64,000 bases of DNA. Origin: Escherichia virus TH10. The stretch is from sequence record MT446388.1. One strand, 5' to 3'. Positions 5,930 to 64,000 of the stretch are shown here, piece after piece (the stretch's first letter is position 1; each line of letters starts with the position of its first letter). The translations under genes were made by a program, and so were the position numbers. Under the pieces are notes generated by a model that was not told where the DNA came from, did not search any database, and saw only the letters and a program-made list of their open reading frames with translations.

Positions 5930-7520
5930 TCCAATCCCTTCCCAGAATCTTCCCAGACTCCCCTAACAAGTTAGAATCTTACCAGACCTTAAAAGCAATA
6001 ACTCTATAGTCTACTCTATATCTTCTTATCAAATCAACTTAAATATAAGCCCATAACCCGAAAGGGAAGGGCAACCACTAAAACGCTCTATAAAGCTCTA
6101 TAACAGCCTTATCAACCTAACTTAAGCAATCATATTAACCTGCTCTAAAAAGCCCTTTATAAAGCTTCCTAGAACCTTAAAAGAATCTTATAAGGGTGTA
6201 AGCTTTATTATCTCGTTAGCTATCTTGTGAACTACTAAACAAGCCCCTTGATAGTAACTGAAAAGTATGTTATAGGGGCTATAAAGTTACTTCAAAGTTG
6301 CTTAAAAGTTACGTAAATGCTAGCCCCCTTAACATTTTCTTAACAATTTCTTAACAATCCCTACATAGTTATGCTTTTAAGGCACTTGTTAGAGACTTGT
6401 TAGCCCCTTGTTAAATCTCTGTTAAGACCACGTAAAAACCTTGTAAGAACCTTTGACATAGCCTTTAAAGCCCCTGTAAAGCCCTATAAAGAGGTATCTG
6501 TATAGTTGGGGTGTAATTACTAGGAAGAGGCTTAAAAGAGCTTACAAGGAGCTATAGAGAGCTTTTAAGAGGTATGTTTAAAGAATCACTAAGAGGGGAA
6601 GGGAACGATAAGAGAAGAGTAGTGACCATGTTAATAGCTTGTTAAAAAGATTAAACACTTGTTAGAAACTTGTTAATCATCTTAATTGGTATTGTTACCA
6701 ATCCCTACAAAATAACTCTTAAAAATTAACTTGTTAGCTCTTGTTAGTCATCTGTTAAGAGACTATAAAGACCATGTATCGTCTGTTAAGAAACTGTTAA
6801 GCCCTTGTTAGTTCTGTTAAGAATCTGTTAAGACCTTTGAAGAGTTGTTAAGAAGATGTGAGAACTGTTAAGAGATTGTTAAGGATATTTTAAAATTTTG
6901 CAAAGGGGATGTTACAGGGATGTTAAGGGCTACCAAGCAGATATACATCTTCTACAGATATTTTTCAGTTCCTTCAAAGACCCTAAAAAATGACTTGATA
7001 GTCCTATTTTATAAAAATTTTAAAAATCTGAATAATTACCTATACAGTCTTTCTAAAATACAGGTAGAAACAGGCTTATAAGATACCTTGTTAGTACCGT
7101 GTTAGACCTTGTGAGATAAGGTCTGTAAAGATATTCCTGTTAAGTTTGTTAAAACAGTCTATATAGAGGCTTAGTAATACCTAGTGAACACCTATAGAGT
7201 GTCATCTATGTGACATAGAGATTAAGAGGTGTATAGGAGCTTCTAAGAGGGTATAGAGAGATGGTTAAGGTGATTGTATAGGTTGTTAAGAAGGCTTGTT
7301 AGAAGAGTGTTTAGAAGGCTATTTAGAAGGGCTATACAGAGGGGCTATTAAGACCACTAGATAGTTACTAAGATACTATATAGTACTATATAACTATATA
7401 GAGAGTAAGATTAAGAAGGTTGTTAAGAAGGATAGATATTTTATTCACATATGATGGTGACCCAGAGGTTGGGACAACCGATAAAATTTTATAAAAAATA
7501 TAAATTTCGTAAATTTTACT
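5930..7520. repeat. ORF-free iteron-rich region
   Basis: no ORF of 60 aa or more in any frame; at least 25 copies of (C/T)TGTTA(A)G in mostly one orientation, often about 11 bp apart (densest 6650-6900), plus CTATA(A/G)AG family. Confidence 0.8.
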
Positions 7521-55366: not shown

Positions 55367-55882
55367 TCAACTTAGTTTTGCAAACTCTCCGTGGAGTTTA
55401 ATAGCAGCTTCACAGTAAGCTTTATGGGCTTCTTCTTCCGTTGTGTATGTTCCTATATGTATAGTCTTGCCGTTATGGTTAATCTGGGCTATCCACTTAC
55501 CAGACTTGCTTCTACTTGTACCTTTTAAGTTTTTTGATGTTCTAGGTTGTCTCCTATTAGACATGTTCTGTTCTTTTGTGGCCTCTCTTAGATTGTCCCA
55601 AGCGTTATTCAAACCATCTCCATCTTTGTGGTCAATGTGTTTGTCAGGCCACTTACCTGTCATCCAGAACCAAGCAATTCGGTGATTACCTGTCCTGTAT
55701 CCTAAAATCTGTGTGTGCATATACACACCAGACCTTGTGCGCTTAATTGCTCCGGCTTGGCTTCCAATAACCACCCTACTACTATGTGGAGGTCTGCCAA
55801 TCCATGTTAAGACCCCTGTTTCGGGGTCATAATCTAACCAAGATTTTAACTGTTCATGTGTGAATCCACAATCTCTCATCAA
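55367..55882 (-). CDS. HNH homing endonuclease with AP2-like DNA-binding domain (171 aa)
   Basis: HIDHKDGDGLNNAWDNLREATKEQN (HNH) and SGKWIAQINHNGKTIHIGTYTTEEEAHKAY (AP2-like); directly downstream of DNA polymerase. Confidence 0.8.
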   Translation of the reverse strand: MMRDCGFTHEQLKSWLDYDPETGVLTWIGRPPHSSRVVIGSQAGAIKRTRSGVYMHTQILGYRTGNHRIAWFWMTGKWPDKHIDHKDGDGLNNAWDNLREATKEQNMSNRRQPRTSKNLKGTSRSKSGKWIAQINHNGKTIHIGTYTTEEEAHKAYCEAAIKLHGEFAKLS

Positions 55883-58608
55883 TGTACCTCATACCAGCTC
55901 TTACCAACCTTACCAGTACCAGTTACCAGTGTTTCTTTCTTAAGACCTAAGTTCTTAGAAGCTTGTCCATAATACCAGTCAGTAACCGCTTTCACCTCTG
56001 CCGTCATACTTTCTGGACATTCCCAACTCGTCTCATCGTGATATGCGCAGAGTAAACGAGCACCAATAGCTGGTTTGCGACCATTCAACTTCATCAAGCC
56101 TTCGTCAATCATACGACGACAAGCAAGGTTAATCGCCTCATTTTGAATCTGAGCCTCTGAACCCATCAAAAGATAGTTCAATAATTTGTGTGGAGATTTA
56201 CACCACAACCAAGCTCCAGCAACCTTTACAAAACCACCTTTAGAGATTGCAGCGGTCTTACCAAACACCTCTTCAAGTGCCTTTTTAGTTGCTTTGTAGT
56301 CAGCTTCCAAGTTATCTAATAGTTTCTTAATCTTTGGCAAACGCACAAAGTAAGTCTGTTTAGTTAATGCACCTTCCTGAGTAGTAGCTGCCTTAATAGT
56401 TTTAGCAAACTTCTCATCACCTGCACCGAACAGTAGTGCATAGATACCATTCTTAGCTTTCTTACGACCTTTGCTAATCTCATGAAGAAGATTCTCATCC
56501 TGAGTAGCTCGACAAGTCAAGATATCCTGCTCATCATTCAAGCTAAAGTAAATACTGTTCAGTGTATGTGCATCAGTCCCTGAATAGACAACGTACAGGT
56601 CATTCTCAGAGTCATAGCGAAGGTACTTATCAATCTCTGGGTTTAGGTACTCATCAAAATGTTTGCAGTAATAGCGTCCATCTTCTTGACGAATGAACTC
56701 AATCTCTTCTTTACCTTGCGTTACCGCTTTGGTGAAGTCTTTATCACCCATAAAGTTACAAAGAAGAACTAGCTGGGCTGAGTTCATATCTACAGATACT
56801 ACGTTGGTTCCCTCTTCACAAATCCACACTGCCCTCATTGGTTCCCCATAGACAGCAGCACCAGACGGTACGTTTACAATACCATATTGTGTCATACGTC
56901 CAGTTGAAGTACCAAACACCATTGCACCAGCACTAAGGCGACCATCAGGACGAATCTGGTTCAACCAACCTTTTTCATCATCCTTTGAGTTCTCAATAGT
57001 TCTGCGTCTGTGCATCAAAGTGTAGTATTTAGCAATCTTCTGTCCAAGCTCACCTTCAATCGTATCATAAGATGATTCAGTAAGTTTTGGTGAAGTACGG
57101 ATTAAGCAAGGCTCAAGCAAATCTGTGTATTTCTTCACAGACCAGTTATGCTCGATGTACTGTACACCTTCATGTTCAACATAACTCAAACCACACCGCT
57201 CAATCATTTCCTGCCACTTAGGATGCTTTGTAATCATCTTTTTATTGTCTTTGAAACGACAAACTTTGACAGGGCGACCATCTGAGTCTTTCTTGTAATT
57301 CCAGTCATCTGGAATCCAACCAACTGATTTCAAGTAGTCTTTAACAACTGCTACCTGAGTCATACGAGAAACTTCAAACTCAATTGGTGTATATGGTGCA
57401 TCAATCAATCCTGTGTAGCGACTTGACTCAAGTTCAAAGTGGTTAACAACATGGCTGTTATAGTACTTCACAGTTTTAACAGTTTTTACTGGCTTCCAGT
57501 CTTTGCATTTCTTACCAATCTTTGCATTCAACTCGTTGCAAATTGCACGGGCATCCTTCATTGCTACAAAGCCTTCCTTGTACTCTTCACCAGTTACAGA
57601 GTTGGTTGGTGTATAGCAATTTCTCTTTTCAATGTTAAAAATCTTTGTAGTTGGCTTACCAAATGGCTTGATTTCGTATGTCTGCATCTCACCGTTACGT
57701 ACCTGCTGACGATACTTTGTTTTAGGGTACTTGGTAATTCTCTTCAGTCCATCTGCATGACCGAATGTTTCAACATACTCATTCCAAGCTTTTGCAAACT
57801 CTTCTCCAGTGACTTTACCTTTGGTCTTAATAGTTGGAGGTAGATGTGGTTCAACCTCTGAAGCAAGCTCATTAGTCAACTTGTCAAGTTCCTTTACATG
57901 GAACTCCATAAGCTCTTTATCAGCTTTCCAGCCATTGATAGCTTGTTGACTCATCCAGAAAGATGTTTCTTTAGCTCGCATGTAGGTTTCATAAGTGTCT
58001 ATGCCACACTTCTTAAGCTTGAGATATTCATTATCAAGTGCCCGTTTAGTTTTGGCGTTAATACGGATATCTTCTACAACACGAGTGAAGATTTCTGCAT
58101 TCCACACACCCCAATGTTCAATCTCTGGTTTACGAACACCAACACGAGCACCCCATGCAGCCAAACCATGAGCACCTTTATAACCCTTTGGAGTTGGTCT
58201 ATCCATCCACTGAACACGAGACTGGATAAGAGAATCCTGAAAGAAATTACTCCACGGTTTACACTTTGGATTATCAAAGTTCCATAAATCAGGTGCAATG
58301 TGATTGAAAACCCACCAGTCATAACCGAGGCCGTTATGGATGCAAAGTCGTTTTGCCTTTAACGCAAACTCAACACCTTCACGTAAACCACCCTTGATGT
58401 ACTTAGTGTACTTGTGACCGAGGATAGGCTCATCTGTAAAGACCCATACAGGTGGCTCTTCATCGTCAGATTTATAGTCTGCGAAAGCCATTACGTGCAC
58501 TTTAGTGAACTCAAGGAGTAAACCATCAGTTTCTGTATCACCAACTAAATGTAAGTTTTTAAAATCTACGTTTTCCATTTTTACTCCCTCTAAAATCATT
58601 AACCTCAT
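55879..58608 (-). CDS. DNA polymerase, family A, with 3'-5' exonuclease domain
   Basis: exo I motif DTETDGL near N-terminus; polymerase motif C LLCAYHDE; 909 aa; start may be internal Met (MENVDF). Confidence 0.85.
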   Translation of the reverse strand: MRLMILEGVKMENVDFKNLHLVGDTETDGLLLEFTKVHVMAFADYKSDDEEPPVWVFTDEPILGHKYTKYIKGGLREGVEFALKAKRLCIHNGLGYDWWVFNHIAPDLWNFDNPKCKPWSNFFQDSLIQSRVQWMDRPTPKGYKGAHGLAAWGARVGVRKPEIEHWGVWNAEIFTRVVEDIRINAKTKRALDNEYLKLKKCGIDTYETYMRAKETSFWMSQQAINGWKADKELMEFHVKELDKLTNELASEVEPHLPPTIKTKGKVTGEEFAKAWNEYVETFGHADGLKRITKYPKTKYRQQVRNGEMQTYEIKPFGKPTTKIFNIEKRNCYTPTNSVTGEEYKEGFVAMKDARAICNELNAKIGKKCKDWKPVKTVKTVKYYNSHVVNHFELESSRYTGLIDAPYTPIEFEVSRMTQVAVVKDYLKSVGWIPDDWNYKKDSDGRPVKVCRFKDNKKMITKHPKWQEMIERCGLSYVEHEGVQYIEHNWSVKKYTDLLEPCLIRTSPKLTESSYDTIEGELGQKIAKYYTLMHRRRTIENSKDDEKGWLNQIRPDGRLSAGAMVFGTSTGRMTQYGIVNVPSGAAVYGEPMRAVWICEEGTNVVSVDMNSAQLVLLCNFMGDKDFTKAVTQGKEEIEFIRQEDGRYYCKHFDEYLNPEIDKYLRYDSENDLYVVYSGTDAHTLNSIYFSLNDEQDILTCRATQDENLLHEISKGRKKAKNGIYALLFGAGDEKFAKTIKAATTQEGALTKQTYFVRLPKIKKLLDNLEADYKATKKALEEVFGKTAAISKGGFVKVAGAWLWCKSPHKLLNYLLMGSEAQIQNEAINLACRRMIDEGLMKLNGRKPAIGARLLCAYHDETSWECPESMTAEVKAVTDWYYGQASKNLGLKKETLVTGTGKVGKSWYEVH

Positions 58609-59259: not shown

Positions 59260-60072
59260 ATGAATATCGATGTAGAAAAGATGCTTGAAGAGAAAGGTGT
59301 TGATGAAGCATTCTTAATCAATGCTGTAGAAAGCATGGCTATGATTCTTCGTGGAAACAACTATACAGAACAGTTTATGCCAAAAAGCTATAACTTGCCT
59401 GAAGATAAAACTGATAACGGTGCTTTTGCAGAGCAGGTTAATATGATGCTGTGCGACAAAACACTTGCTTTAGCATCTATCGTTGTAGGTGTTGATGCTC
59501 TTGCAGAGTTCATTTTTTATGAAATGCAGAAAAATGACTATGTTGCCATGACCTCTGAAGAGAAAGACCTGCTACTACTCGCAGGTAATGATGAACTAAT
59601 TAACCTGTTAATTTCATCAACGAGTGCTGTAATGGCTGCTCTTGAGAAGCGCATGGAAGAGAAACTTTCACGATATGAAAAACTTGATTGGGGCGTAGAA
59701 GAATTAAACCCACGAATCAAAGAGATTATCCAGCAAACTAAAGAGTCTTTGGAAAAAGCTGTTGAAAATGACTCTGTAGCTGATATAGAACCACTTCAGG
59801 TGAAAGTTGCACTGATGATTCCAGCTATCTCTACGATGATGAATATCGTTGCACTAATCCAACTTTCACAGATGATGGGTGTGAGTGTTGAGTTCATTGA
59901 GGAGATGACTGGTGGCGTTAGTATGCAAGCAATCAATGATGTTCTTATGAGCATCGGTGCATCAATTATTGAAGAGAAACTACGCATCAACTTTGGTGAT
60001 GAGTTTGTGAAGCAAGTTGCAGAGATGGCTGAAAAAGAATCTTCTCAAGTGACTGCTAAACAATTGCACTAA
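59260..60072 (+). CDS. hypothetical protein (270 aa)
   Basis: ORF. Confidence 0.55.
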   Translation: MNIDVEKMLEEKGVDEAFLINAVESMAMILRGNNYTEQFMPKSYNLPEDKTDNGAFAEQVNMMLCDKTLALASIVVGVDALAEFIFYEMQKNDYVAMTSEEKDLLLLAGNDELINLLISSTSAVMAALEKRMEEKLSRYEKLDWGVEELNPRIKEIIQQTKESLEKAVENDSVADIEPLQVKVALMIPAISTMMNIVALIQLSQMMGVSVEFIEEMTGGVSMQAINDVLMSIGASIIEEKLRINFGDEFVKQVAEMAEKESSQVTAKQLH

Positions 60073-60884: not shown

Positions 60885-61085
60885 ATGAAGATGAGAGTAA
60901 AAGATAATTTTAAAGTTATTGACCATCGTTTAGTGGAACTCTCATCTCTTTCCAATGAAGTGATGTTTGAACGTCTTAAAAGAGTTGAATCACGAAGGAA
61001 AGAGATTGCAGATGAGATTTATGAACTGGACAAGATTGAGAATGGTTTAAAAGCAGAACTACAACGAAGAGGTGCTAATGTCTAA
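60885..61085 (+). CDS. hypothetical coiled-coil protein (66 aa)
   Basis: ORF. Confidence 0.45.
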   Translation: MKMRVKDNFKVIDHRLVELSSLSNEVMFERLKRVESRRKEIADEIYELDKIENGLKAELQRRGANV

Positions 61086-63063
61086 AGGTCGTAAATTAAA
61101 AGAGGCTGGTCAGTTTGTAGGTCATTGTGCATGTCCACGTTGTGGTTCGTCAGATGCTGGTTCAATCTATCACCATGACGATGGCTCTTACTCAATGACT
61201 TGCTTTAGTTGTAACAAAGGTTTCCCAGAATGGGATTTTGATAAAGGACAAATCGTGAGCACTTATTCTACTGGTTCAGATAGCAAAAATCGTACATTCC
61301 GTGGGATGGATTTAGATGATGTAAAAGATAATCTTGAAGCTATGGACTTAAAAGACAGGAAGATTCCTGCAAAAGTCCTTGAGAGATTAGGTATCAAGGT
61401 TGATATTGATAGTGATGGTGAAATTGATGCACACTTCTATCCAACTTACAAACGTAATGAAGATGGAAAGCTAGAGCATGTTGGTTACCGTGTTCGTCAT
61501 CGTTACCCAGAAGACCACCCAAAAGAACACCTACGTGGTAAGTTAAAAGATTTTTCAGGTGGTGTTGGAGACATTAAAGGTGAACTGGCAATGTTTGGTT
61601 CATGGATTGCTCCAGAAGGTGGTAATCGCCTGTTCATCTGGGAAGGCGAGATGGAATGTGCTACAGCAATCTATATGACTTCTCTTGCGATTAAGGACAA
61701 ATCTCGTCGTAAGAATTACTGTCATGTGTCCGTTCCATCAGGTGCAAACATCAAGTCTATCAAAGATAATTATCAGTACATTACATCATTTGATGAAATT
61801 TACTTGTGCTTTGATAACGATGAAGCAGGTGCTAAAGCTACTAAGGAGGCTGCTGGTATCCTACCTATTGAGAAGGTTCGTTTATTCCAGTATCCAGAGG
61901 GTGTAAAAGACCTTAATGAATGGTGGACAAAGTTCTATAAAGAGAAAGATACAGTTCTGGAAGGATTTAAGCAGCGTATCTACAACGCACCTCGTTACTG
62001 CCCTGCTGGTATCAAGAACTTTGCAGACGGTTTTGAGGCAATGAAGAATCGTGGTCAGATTCCATTGATTCCTTTCCCAGAATCTTTCGGGGATTTGAAC
62101 AGACTGACTTATGGTGGCTACGGTTTAGGTGAGATTACAACTATTGCAGCACCATCTTCAGTAGGTAAGTCAGCTTACACTCGTGAGATGATTTACTCAG
62201 CTTGGAAAGAAACTGATTATAATATCGGTGTAATTCCTGTAGAAGATACCTATGAAGAGTTGATGGAGATGCTCTGTGCAATCCACCTGAGCAAGCAGAT
62301 TTCTGAGATTCCTTATGATGAACGGGATTGGGATGAATTAAAAGGAGCACACGCAGAACTATCTAAAGGCCGTCGTATCCATATCGTTGACCATCAAGGG
62401 GCAATTGACCAAGATAACCTGCTAGAGTTTGTTGACTATCTTGTTAACAGTTTAGACTGTAAGATTATCATTCTTGACCCTATCACGTTAGCCCTGTCAC
62501 GTTCTGATACGGATGAAGAGGAAGTTTTGTCTGAGCTATTGCGTCGTTGCAAACGCTACCAGTATGCACAGGTAAACGTCTGTCACGTTCGTAAGAGTGC
62601 AGGTGGTCAGAAAGCTAACTCTGAAGGTGGAGATATCTCTGAAGAGGATATTAAAGGCTCTGGTGCGTATTTCCAGATTTCTATGAACAACATTCTGTTA
62701 ATGCGTAACAAGGTTGACCCAGACCCTGTTAAGAAAAACTTGACAAAAATCAAGTTAACTAAATGTCGTCGTCATGGTAAGTCAACGGGTATTGCTGGTC
62801 ATACTTGGTACAATCCAGATACAGGACGTCTCATTAAAGCATCTGGTTGTGGAGTTGACATTGATGGTGCAGCAGAAAATATCCGTCAACAGTTTGGTAT
62901 TGGTGAGGCTGAAGACCATTACGATGACTCTTTGCCACATTATGAGGATGAAGTGTTTGACCGTGAGACTGGTGAAGTCTATACTGATGAGCAGCGTCAA
63001 AGTTCAACAATTCCACCAGTCGTAAGTGAGGATGCAGATGACTGCCCGTTCGAAACTGAGTGA
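61078..63063 (+). CDS. primase-helicase (T7 gp4-like)
   Basis: N-terminal zinc ribbon CACPRCGS..CFSCNKG, central TOPRIM-like region, C-terminal Walker A APSSVGKSA; ATG 61078 after AGAGG. Confidence 0.8.
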   Translation: MSKGRKLKEAGQFVGHCACPRCGSSDAGSIYHHDDGSYSMTCFSCNKGFPEWDFDKGQIVSTYSTGSDSKNRTFRGMDLDDVKDNLEAMDLKDRKIPAKVLERLGIKVDIDSDGEIDAHFYPTYKRNEDGKLEHVGYRVRHRYPEDHPKEHLRGKLKDFSGGVGDIKGELAMFGSWIAPEGGNRLFIWEGEMECATAIYMTSLAIKDKSRRKNYCHVSVPSGANIKSIKDNYQYITSFDEIYLCFDNDEAGAKATKEAAGILPIEKVRLFQYPEGVKDLNEWWTKFYKEKDTVLEGFKQRIYNAPRYCPAGIKNFADGFEAMKNRGQIPLIPFPESFGDLNRLTYGGYGLGEITTIAAPSSVGKSAYTREMIYSAWKETDYNIGVIPVEDTYEELMEMLCAIHLSKQISEIPYDERDWDELKGAHAELSKGRRIHIVDHQGAIDQDNLLEFVDYLVNSLDCKIIILDPITLALSRSDTDEEEVLSELLRRCKRYQYAQVNVCHVRKSAGGQKANSEGGDISEEDIKGSGAYFQISMNNILLMRNKVDPDPVKKNLTKIKLTKCRRHGKSTGIAGHTWYNPDTGRLIKASGCGVDIDGAAENIRQQFGIGEAEDHYDDSLPHYEDEVFDRETGEVYTDEQRQSSTIPPVVSEDADDCPFETE

Positions 63064-63133
63064 TAGCTATAAAAGAGAGGGGTTCATACCCTTCTTTGAA
63101 GAAAAAAGTTTAAATAAATTTCAGGAAGAGTGT

Positions 63134-63162
63134 TTGACAAAGGTTGATAGGTTCTATAGAAT
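63134..63162 (+). promoter_or_regulatory. sigma70-like promoter (TTGACA-17-TAGAAT)
   Basis: consensus hexamers. Confidence 0.5.
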
Positions 63163-63316
63163 GCTCTACATGAAATGTGATGGGGGTGTCGAAGTAGAGA
63201 AAAAGTCCTATCACAATACTGTCACAGTCATCATCACTATACCTGAACATAATATTGGTTGGCTGTTTGTAATAAAAGAAAATGTGTTTGAATATCAAGT
63301 ATATCGGAGAATATCA

Positions 63317-63457
63317 TGAAACACTCTAAAGCATTTGAAAAAGTTTTTGGGGATTCCTTAAAAGCCACTGCTGGAAAACCAGCAAAATACTATGAAGAGA
63401 AGCGTGTAAGAACTGGAAAAACTGCACGCAAAGCATCTTCTAAAGATAAGCACAACT
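63317..63457 (+). CDS. possible small basic protein (46 aa)
   Basis: GGAG RBS 8 nt upstream; not in ORF track (<60 aa). Confidence 0.35.
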
Positions 63458-63472
63458 TCCAGTAATTAATGT

Positions 63473-63501
63473 TTGACAATAGAGTATCAACAAATTAGAA
63501 T
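63473..63501 (+). promoter_or_regulatory. sigma70-like promoter (TTGACA-17-TAGAAT)
   Basis: consensus hexamers. Confidence 0.5.
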
Positions 63502-63537
63502 TGGTACTCTTCATAAATTGAGATAGAGGTTTAAATA

Positions 63538-64000
63538 ATGTCTAAAGTTGTTAAAATGAAAGCTCCGGTAGAGAAGTACAACGGTACTGAACGTCAAACT
63601 CTGCGTTACCTTCTGAAAGATGTCTGGTTTTATTACCTGAACACTTCACCACGTCCGGGAAAAGGTAAGTCCATTGATAAGAAATTCCCAGGCAAAGACT
63701 GTAACTACAGCGTTTCAATTCTGGCAGAAGATGGTAACAAGCTGTTTAAAGAGTTTACTAAGTCTAAGAAAAACCCAGAAGGTTGGGATAAAGTTACTAC
63801 TGAAGCAGTTGATGCAGATGACTTCGAAGAGAAGTTTGGTTGTAAACCACCTTTTGAAGCAGACACTTACTACATCTTGAAAGTAAGTCGTGCAGCAGCT
63901 TATAAAGACGGTGCTGTGTGGACAGCTAAACAGTCATTCCCTGTGATGCTGATTGAAGAAGTAAATGGTAAGCGTGTAGCTGTTAAACAGCCGATGAAGA
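63538..64000 (+). CDS. hypothetical protein, 3' end truncated by window
   Basis: ATG after GAGGT RBS, open to the last base (at least 154 codons); missing from ORF track because no stop is in the window. Confidence 0.6.
   Translation, partial: MSKVVKMKAPVEKYNGTERQTLRYLLKDVWFYYLNTSPRPGKGKSIDKKFPGKDCNYSVSILAEDGNKLFKEFTKSKKNPEGWDKVTTEAVDADDFEEKFGCKPPFEADTYYILKVSRAAAYKDGAVWTAKQSFPVMLIEEVNGKRVAVKQPMK

Follow-up and report, generated by a model that had tools for sequence, protein, structure and literature searches.

At the end of the analyzed DNA (a stretch of 64,000 nucleotides from Escherichia virus TH10, MT446388.1, referred to as the window), a reading frame runs off the last base, which raises the question of whether it represents a gene and, if so, what its product does. 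The frame is opened by an ATG at positions 63538-63540 and comprises 154 complete codons, free of stops as far as position 63999, leaving one spare base at 64000. Since an in-frame TAA (63532-63534) directly precedes this ATG, the latter is the first possible start. A Shine-Dalgarno-like GAGGT motif, read from the sequence (63526..63530, plus strand), is located 7 nt 5' of the ATG, and a ribosome-binding site is annotated at the corresponding place in phage Moogle's record. The original prediction of an ATG with a GAGGT ribosome-binding site opening a frame of at least 154 codons up to the last base was borne out by sequence and translation. Its omission from the ORF track, also pointed out there, is explained by the ORF lister, which drops frames running off the end of the source. 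The remaining five frames of the span 63538-64000 contain 3-22 stops each, and 154 open codons are expected by chance with a probability of approximately 2.7e-5, as calculated from the base composition of the window. Small overlapping ORFs at 63551-63718 (minus strand), 63674-63880 (plus strand) and 63705-63866 (minus strand) were set aside as spurious ORFs shadowing the conserved frame.

For the last 3 kb of the window, matches were obtained in 260 phage records, foremost among them Escherichia phage JohannRWettstein (Bas63), a Felixounavirus, with 96.2% identity. Its counterpart of the 63538 frame, bas63_0055 (Bas63_0055; 858 nt, 285 aa), is labelled "hypothetical protein". Residues 1-154 of Bas63_0055 are 100% identical to the window product, and the five nucleotide differences within the 154 codons are all synonymous third-position exchanges. 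Homology searches, as had been proposed for the partial product, also revealed conservation: the 154-aa fragment covers positions 1-154 of the 285-position family PHROG 3877 ("unknown function"; E=8e-91), and tblastn retrieved homologues of the protein in 301 phage records, nearly all of which bear the names of phages infecting enterobacteria. All lineages examined are members of the Ounavirinae, and identity decreases to approximately 45% in Erwinia, Pectobacterium and Hafnia phages. The 63538 frame is coding and constitutes the first 54% of a conserved 285-codon gene; its truncation is a windowing artefact only, in agreement with the assumption of a real gene cut by the window end. A stop just past position 64000 or a lack of conservation, named as possible counter-evidence, was not encountered, as the orthologues run on for 131 more codons. 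All features past residue 154 described below were taken from orthologues, since the window stops there.

The window gene is a member of the PHROG 3877/Felix01p191 family of Ounavirinae 'hypothetical proteins' and does not differ from it in any respect. Among the matches listed, every annotated homologue carries the label "hypothetical", save one: the orthologue in Escherichia phage JLBYU28 (OK272472.1) is called 'putative DNA primase/helicase', which is probably wrong. The orthologue of FelixO1 was identified by cluster look-up as Felix01p191 (Q6KGA9, "Uncharacterized protein"), and the sole exception in this look-up is UniRef entry A0ABX6PT92 of Salmonella phage SapYZU01, named "Single-stranded DNA-binding protein". 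The family has no function in PHROGs or GenBank, and one automated UniRef name already denotes an SSB (single-stranded DNA-binding protein). Literature on Felixounavirus, FelixO1, Ounavirinae and Bas63 was searched, and no publication assigning an SSB was found. As a side observation, 'Campylobacter phage A132' (MG065664.1) harbors a 99.6%-identical copy of the gene, suggesting a Felixounavirus contaminant or a host misassignment.

Upstream of the gene, a sigma-70-type promoter-like site (TTGACA-17 nt-TAGAAT; 63473..63501, plus strand) with 11 of 12 consensus matches was found 36 nt before the start codon, and an identical site precedes the gene in Bas63. Weaker promoter-like sites are present in upstream regions of orthologues (10/12 matches in Erwinia phage M7, 9/12 in the Hafnia phage). 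Based on the consensus match, the site at 63473-63501 appears to function as a promoter. A second promoter-like site featuring the same hexamers and spacing (TTGACA-17-TAGAAT) is located 340 nt further upstream (63134-63162, plus strand), within the 97-codon ORF 63026-63319. Downstream of the gene, a rho-independent terminator was annotated by the depositors directly after it in phages XTG1 and Moogle; terminator-like hairpins also follow it in Erwinia phage M7 and the Hafnia phage, and no hairpin was called in a terminator scan after the Bas63 gene. A dedicated promoter-like site together with a terminator would fit a protein needed in stoichiometric amounts.

Concerning the identity of the product, the 63538 frame (63538..64000, plus strand; 154 of 285 codons) very probably represents the 5' half of the phage's own SSB gene, encoding a divergent member of the T7 gp2.5/Enc34 ORF6 ('T7-type') superfamily. 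This assignment is based on gene identity, predicted fold and a chain of profile comparisons; with tail features and gene context added to fold and profiles, four independent lines of evidence point to it. Direct searches did not reveal it. Neither Pfam nor NCBIfam (both E<=10) yielded anything usable for the 154-aa fragment or the full-length orthologue, and the same applies to phmmer searches against PDB sequences and to a profile of the Felix family only searched against the PDB. In particular, the models PF21265 (SBB_T7) and PF10991 (Enc34_ssDNA-bd) matched neither the fragment nor the full-length orthologue at E<=10, and pairwise BLASTP against T7 gp2.5 was not significant. A TFIIA match on the acidic tail was dismissed as spurious, and hits to BshC and SIR3 reached E-values of 0.2 or worse.

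The truncated product retrieved fragments only in a large-database search, after which the full-length orthologue was used as the query. An exhaustive HMM search with the tail-trimmed Felix family profile (threshold E<=1e-3) yielded 50 relatives, mostly 200-240 aa in length, which constitute an intermediate family. The Felix family aligned to this intermediate family over residues 24-220 (hhalign, 99.9%, E=5e-36), and the intermediate family in turn aligned to T7 gp2.5 (hhalign, 95.6%, E=1e-8), the match spanning gp2.5 residues 99-186. When the intermediate-family HMM was searched against the whole PDB, 1je5 came first (E=4.3e-7), with 4jg2 and 4klk next in line. Moreover, three intermediate members match PF10991 or PF21265 by themselves, and the PF10991 HMM was reached by only 2 of 42 intermediate relatives. 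Since hhalign of the Felix profile directly with one gp2.5 sequence gave a weak match (E=0.057) of unchanged register, homology to gp2.5 rests on this transitive chain together with the predicted structure. As the curated Pfam HMMs of both families failed, the Felix proteins were filed as a separate divergent branch of the superfamily. By the combination of HMM match and homotetramer-type OB-fold, the protein does not belong to the bacterial SSB family PF00436.

In order to obtain a structural model, AlphaFold2 was run on 12 aligned full-length homologues with identities of 44-99%; over 154 residues, the first of these sequences is identical to the window product. The resulting model is of moderate confidence (mean pLDDT 69, approximately 80 for residues 1-217; three of five models were poor). 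Its top nine Foldseek matches in the PDB are the T7-type SSB group plus 4jg2, and the named matches in BFVD are ssDNA-binding, helix-destabilizing or DUF2815 proteins; the Foldseek TM-scores are modest (0.39-0.53). With respect to the description of the T7-type superfamily (gp2.5, Enc34 ORF6, DUF2815) by Cernooka et al. 2017 (PMC5686142), the model predicts a single extended OB-fold domain that is nearer to gp2.5, Enc34 and DUF2815 than to other OB-fold proteins. In the Bas63 orthologue, the N-terminal domain (residues 1-217) is basic, with a pI of 8.8. The portion of the gene within the window encodes the N-terminal strands, strands beta1-beta3 of the OB-barrel and two short helices; strands beta4-beta5, a GNGS motif and Tyr194, as well as the tail with its acidic residues, are located beyond the window end.

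Two independent alignments (hhalign and a 60-sequence MAFFT alignment) place the G-N-G-S motif on gp2.5 G144-S147 and Tyr194, which is invariant in the family, on gp2.5 Tyr158. The latter residue is the conserved ssDNA-stacking aromatic of T7-type SSBs (Cernooka et al. 2017, PMC5686142), which is located at the start of beta4 and corresponds to Trp150 in Enc34 (PMC5686142). A polar residue stabilizing the DNA kink was described as Asn161 in gp2.5 and Asn154 in Enc34 (PMC5686142). At the position of gp2.5 Asn161, either Phe196 or Glu197 is aligned, with Asn198 and Asn199 adjacent, in a gap-rich loop, and the assignment is ambiguous.

Compared with T7 gp2.5 (PDB 1je5; PF21265 SBB_T7), the Felix-type protein shares approximately 15% identity over the structural alignment, without a direct HMM match, and is longer (285 vs. 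232 aa). Where gp2.5 has a long alpha-helix, the predicted model shows two short ones (residues 66-71 and 93-100), and a beta-hairpin insertion of approximately 35 residues (127-165) is absent from T7 gp2.5 and also from the 200-230-aa relatives. In comparison with the Enterobacter phage Enc34 ORF6 SSB/DUF2815 proteins (PDB 5odk/5odl, 4klk, 4jg2; PF10991), the Felix-type protein has no PF10991 match and possesses a longer tail and the insertion. With E. coli-type SSB (PF00436) and T4 gp32, it has the generic logic of an OB-fold and an acidic tail in common. The most fitting description is that of a divergent branch of its own within the superfamily, to which it belongs by fold and transitive profile evidence, and by analogy its mode of action would be that of gp2.5 and Enc34 ORF6.

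The C-terminal part of the protein represents a second characteristic feature. Residues 218-285 of the orthologue form a 68-residue tail (pLDDT <50) with 31 Asp/Glu vs. 1 Lys/Arg and a pI of 4.05, ending in ...EEDFDTED in Bas63. This acidic tail is kept in all 12 full-length homologues. Within their alignment, Phe281 is invariant and part of an F-x-T-E/D tip, with 3-7 residues following the Phe. Furthermore, the tail contains an additional conserved motif, ELDEDELAMLGL, of which D232, L234, L237 and G238 are invariant. Among the distant relatives, an aromatic residue occurs within the last eight positions in 41 of 42 sequences, and at least 10 Asp/Glu are found among the last 30 residues in 30 of 42. 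An acidic unstructured tail is typical of prokaryotic and phage SSBs (PMC5686142); that of gp2.5 mediates contacts with polymerase and helicase (PMC5686142, PMC12339929), and its C-terminal aromatic residue, Phe232, is needed for partner binding (PMC5686142). The gp2.5 tail is considerably shorter (approximately 21-26 residues) than the Felix-type tail with its extra motif, and its Phe is C-terminal, whereas the Phe of the Felix-type protein is internal (F-x-T-E/D plus 0-4 residues).

Many intermediate-family members of 200-230 aa (P0024, P0026, P0039, P0044, P0046-P0048, P0054, P0057, P0063-P0065) end in D-D-[IVT]-P-F or D-x-P-F. A DD[IVT]PF-like ending resembles the tip of E. coli SSB. This hints that the SSBs of those phages recruit host SSB-interacting proteins, unlike those with the Felix-type F-x-T-E tip.

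Regarding the genomic context, the gene is part of a replication module. Within the window, this module consists of a family-A DNA polymerase (55879..58608, minus strand; PF00476 at 1.8e-15), a dNMP kinase, a Toprim+DnaB_C primase-helicase and, subsequently, the SSB gene. The T7 gp4-like primase-helicase (61072..63063, plus strand) was identified by the Pfam models Toprim_2 (1.6e-9) and DnaB_C (4.9e-8) and by annotation in relatives, and is presumed to be the replisome partner of the SSB. In Bas63, bas63_0055 follows the primase/helicase and two small ORFs and precedes an "exodeoxyribonuclease" gene. The order primase-helicase, SSB gene, exonuclease is maintained in Felixounavirus, Suspvirus, Mooglevirus, Kolesnikvirus, the Hafnia phage and Pectobacterium phage Wc4-1. 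Even in three distant lineages sharing less than 30% identity, a primase-helicase and a DNA polymerase are encoded no more than a few kb from the SSB relative, and an endonuclease VII, ligase or T7 gp5.9-like gene is located nearby. The replication-associated role originally proposed from the position after the primase-helicase is hence supported by structure, profile-profile comparison, tail features and gene context.

The downstream exonuclease shows weak but correctly ordered matches to PF02739 and PF01367, below the Pfam thresholds and stronger in a 47%-identical homologue. Based on these ordered FEN-family matches, its likeness is to T7 gp6 or T5 D15 rather than to RecE, and a partner nuclease of the RecE/lambda-Exo type was rejected on the same grounds. 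Family-A polymerase, primase-helicase, SSB and FEN-like exonuclease correspond to a T7-like replisome gene set; its further components (Toprim-DnaB fusion, family-A polymerase and 5'-3' exonuclease) are indeed co-encoded with the SSB gene. No other SSB and no recombinase are present in the Bas63 annotation.

Further observations were made on neighboring genes. Two small plus-strand ORFs, 63026-63319 (97 aa, PHROG 4982) and 63316-63465 (49 aa, PHROG 4424), are located between primase-helicase and SSB gene; both PHROGs are without function, and the 49-aa product is very basic. They are kept in Felixounavirus, Suspvirus, Mooglevirus and Wc4-1, but in Kolesnikvirus and the Hafnia phage they are absent and the helicase gene is immediately followed by the SSB gene. 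The product of 59260-60072 (plus strand, 270 aa) is called 'minor tail protein' in PHROG 4251 and XTG1 and 'hypothetical' in Bas63; given the position of the gene between polymerase and dNMP kinase, the former label seems to be an annotation error that has been passed on. Beyond the window and after the exonuclease, Bas63 gene 0057 (L001 10489-10986) encodes a GIY-YIG homing endonuclease of the SegE type (PF19835, E=9e-28); its label is 'NAD synthetase' in SUSP1, Moogle and M7 and 'hypothetical' in the Bas63 record.

A link between the SSB and its neighbor emerged from the C-termini of both proteins. The primase-helicase ends in an acidic tail, SEDADDCPFETE (63025..63060, plus strand), featuring the same aromatic-x-T-E tip as the SSB. 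In the whole Bas63 genome, this ending occurs on the primase-helicase, the SSB and one spurious 40-aa non-acidic segment only. Moreover, the tips of helicase and SSB co-vary across five Ounavirinae lineages: CPFETE and EDFDTED (helicase and SSB, respectively) in Felixounavirus, CPFETD and EDFDTED in Suspvirus, CPFETD and DDFETDDE in Mooglevirus, GSGFQTE and EEGFQTE in Pectobacterium phage Wc4-1, and DDDDIPFRTE and DDDDVPFKTE in Kolesnikvirus. T7-like lineages carry a terminal F on both proteins (LNDF and DSPF in L004, PKGF and SSPF in L006, DTDF and DGDF in T7). In the Hafnia phage and in L007, a Felix-like metagenomic lineage, the helicase has no tip and the SSB ends in EWETN and SWRTE, respectively; remnants of a helicase tail were sought in these two and none were found. 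In L007, a gene for a PIF1-family helicase (6171-7517) is inserted between primase-helicase and SSB gene, so that the primase-helicase has lost its tail where a second helicase has been gained.

In T7, the tail of gp2.5 is anchored on the front basic patch of the polymerase, and gp2.5 cannot do without its terminal Phe (PMC12339929 and the literature quoted there). A DTDF peptide mimicking the gp4 tail (PDB 6P7E) served the authors as template for placing the gp2.5 C-terminus (PMC12339929). By analogy to gp4 and gp2.5, the same co-varying tip on the primase-helicase indicates that helicase and SSB probably share one docking site. Tip co-variation is what a shared site would produce and suggests such an arrangement, with the partner assigned after the T7 example. 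In many Ounavirinae, an internal aromatic-x-Thr-Glu/Asp tip co-evolving on SSB and primase-helicase might even constitute a distinct docking code that is read by one site on the polymerase or another partner and is mechanistically unlike the T7/E. coli mode; this further-reaching idea is put forward tentatively, as its chances are judged to be somewhat short of even. In the T7 and E. coli mode, the aromatic is the very last residue, and its free carboxylate is part of recognition. Should the idea of a docking code hold true, the tail motif would represent a second, SSB-specific interaction module.

Based on these findings, the following mode of action is proposed. The SSB gene would be transcribed from its own sigma-70-type promoter, with a terminator following outside the window. 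The extended OB-fold domain (1-217) would coat lagging-strand ssDNA exposed by the adjacent primase-helicase, contacting it via an aromatic stack including Tyr194, at the position of gp2.5 Tyr158, and via basic residues. When the SSB is off DNA, its acidic tail may occupy the DNA-binding groove, as in gp2.5. By analogy to gp2.5 and T7 gp5, the tail would dock via its F-x-T-E tip on partners in the replisome, among which the family-A polymerase is the most likely one and the helicase a possible further one, and this docking may couple SSB displacement to DNA synthesis. Both acidic tails, that of the SSB and that of the primase-helicase, are predicted to target the polymerase encoded at 55879..58608, the counterpart of T7 gp5. 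A gp2.5-like annealing activity is likewise possible.

The latter activity leads to other explanations that have to be considered for this gene. The protein could mainly be a single-strand-annealing recombinase (a gp2.5-like SSAP) operating in an exo/annealase module with the downstream exonuclease instead of being a replisome SSB. According to the main text of Lopes et al. 2010 (PMC2896510), in which FelixO1 is not mentioned, Gp2.5-like proteins show annealing activity in vivo and are often encoded beside an exonuclease gene. An exonuclease gene indeed directly follows the SSB gene in every Ounavirinae lineage examined, and the Bas63 annotation offers no other candidate recombinase. However, the neighboring exonuclease looks like one of the FEN/5'-3'-exonuclease type (T7 gp6, T5 D15) and not RecE- or lambda-Exo-like, a terminator separates its gene from the SSB gene, and the tip common to SSB and primase-helicase points to replisome coupling. 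A function mainly in annealing is accordingly considered unlikely; since both roles are combined in one protein in T7, annealing would be an additional activity more than an alternative. An equivalent of gp2.5 Arg82, which is involved in strand annealing, was not mapped, as the hhalign match spans gp2.5 residues 99-186 only.

Furthermore, an OB-fold protein of gp2.5 architecture could fulfil another task, for example luring away host proteins or defence systems with its acidic tail, or binding RNA or dsDNA. In favor of this, OB-folds serve a variety of functions, the tail has an unusual length (68 aa vs. 21-29 aa in gp2.5 and Enc34) and carries the extra motif, the insertion at 127-165 is absent from the shorter relatives, and the direct family HMMs gave no match. 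Nevertheless, the best structural and profile matches are T7-type SSBs specifically and not generic OB-folds, the ssDNA-stacking Tyr is invariant, the replication-module context persists in lineages sharing less than 30% identity, and the phage would otherwise be without an SSB, all of which makes a different task very improbable. Practically no probability remains for the idea that the frame at the window edge arose by chance or is a piece of a pseudogene, for which only the missing stop codon in the window could be cited. It is refuted by the conservation described above, namely the complete protein identity with synonymous-only differences, the full-length homologues in 301 phage records and the PHROG match, in addition to the low chance expectation for the frame and the presence of a promoter-like site and ribosome-binding site. 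The T7-type SSB thus remains the preferred interpretation.

FelixO1-like phages, which also feature in the BASEL collection, find wide use in the typing of Salmonella and E. coli, in biocontrol and in therapy. No SSB is annotated in their genome records, and the T7-type SSB assignment would correct the annotation of approximately 300 records. It would also complete a T7-like replisome, consisting of family-A polymerase, primase-helicase, SSB and FEN-like exonuclease, in an 87-kb myovirus. Through the co-varying tips of helicase and SSB, the cohesion of this replisome becomes accessible to simple tests. The general picture of phage replication is unchanged by these results; they would mend an annotation and extend the T7 tail-docking paradigm in a testable way, without surprising the specialist.

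The predicted SSB is also a candidate for triggering defence systems that sense such proteins, for instance retron Eco8. The defence system DRT7 is triggered in Bas63 by Bas63-035, a putative transcriptional regulator (preprint 10.64898/2026.04.18.719102). The DRT7 trigger is hence gene 035 (MZ501086.1 26324-26623) and not the SSB gene, and an orthologue of gene 035 may be located within the window.
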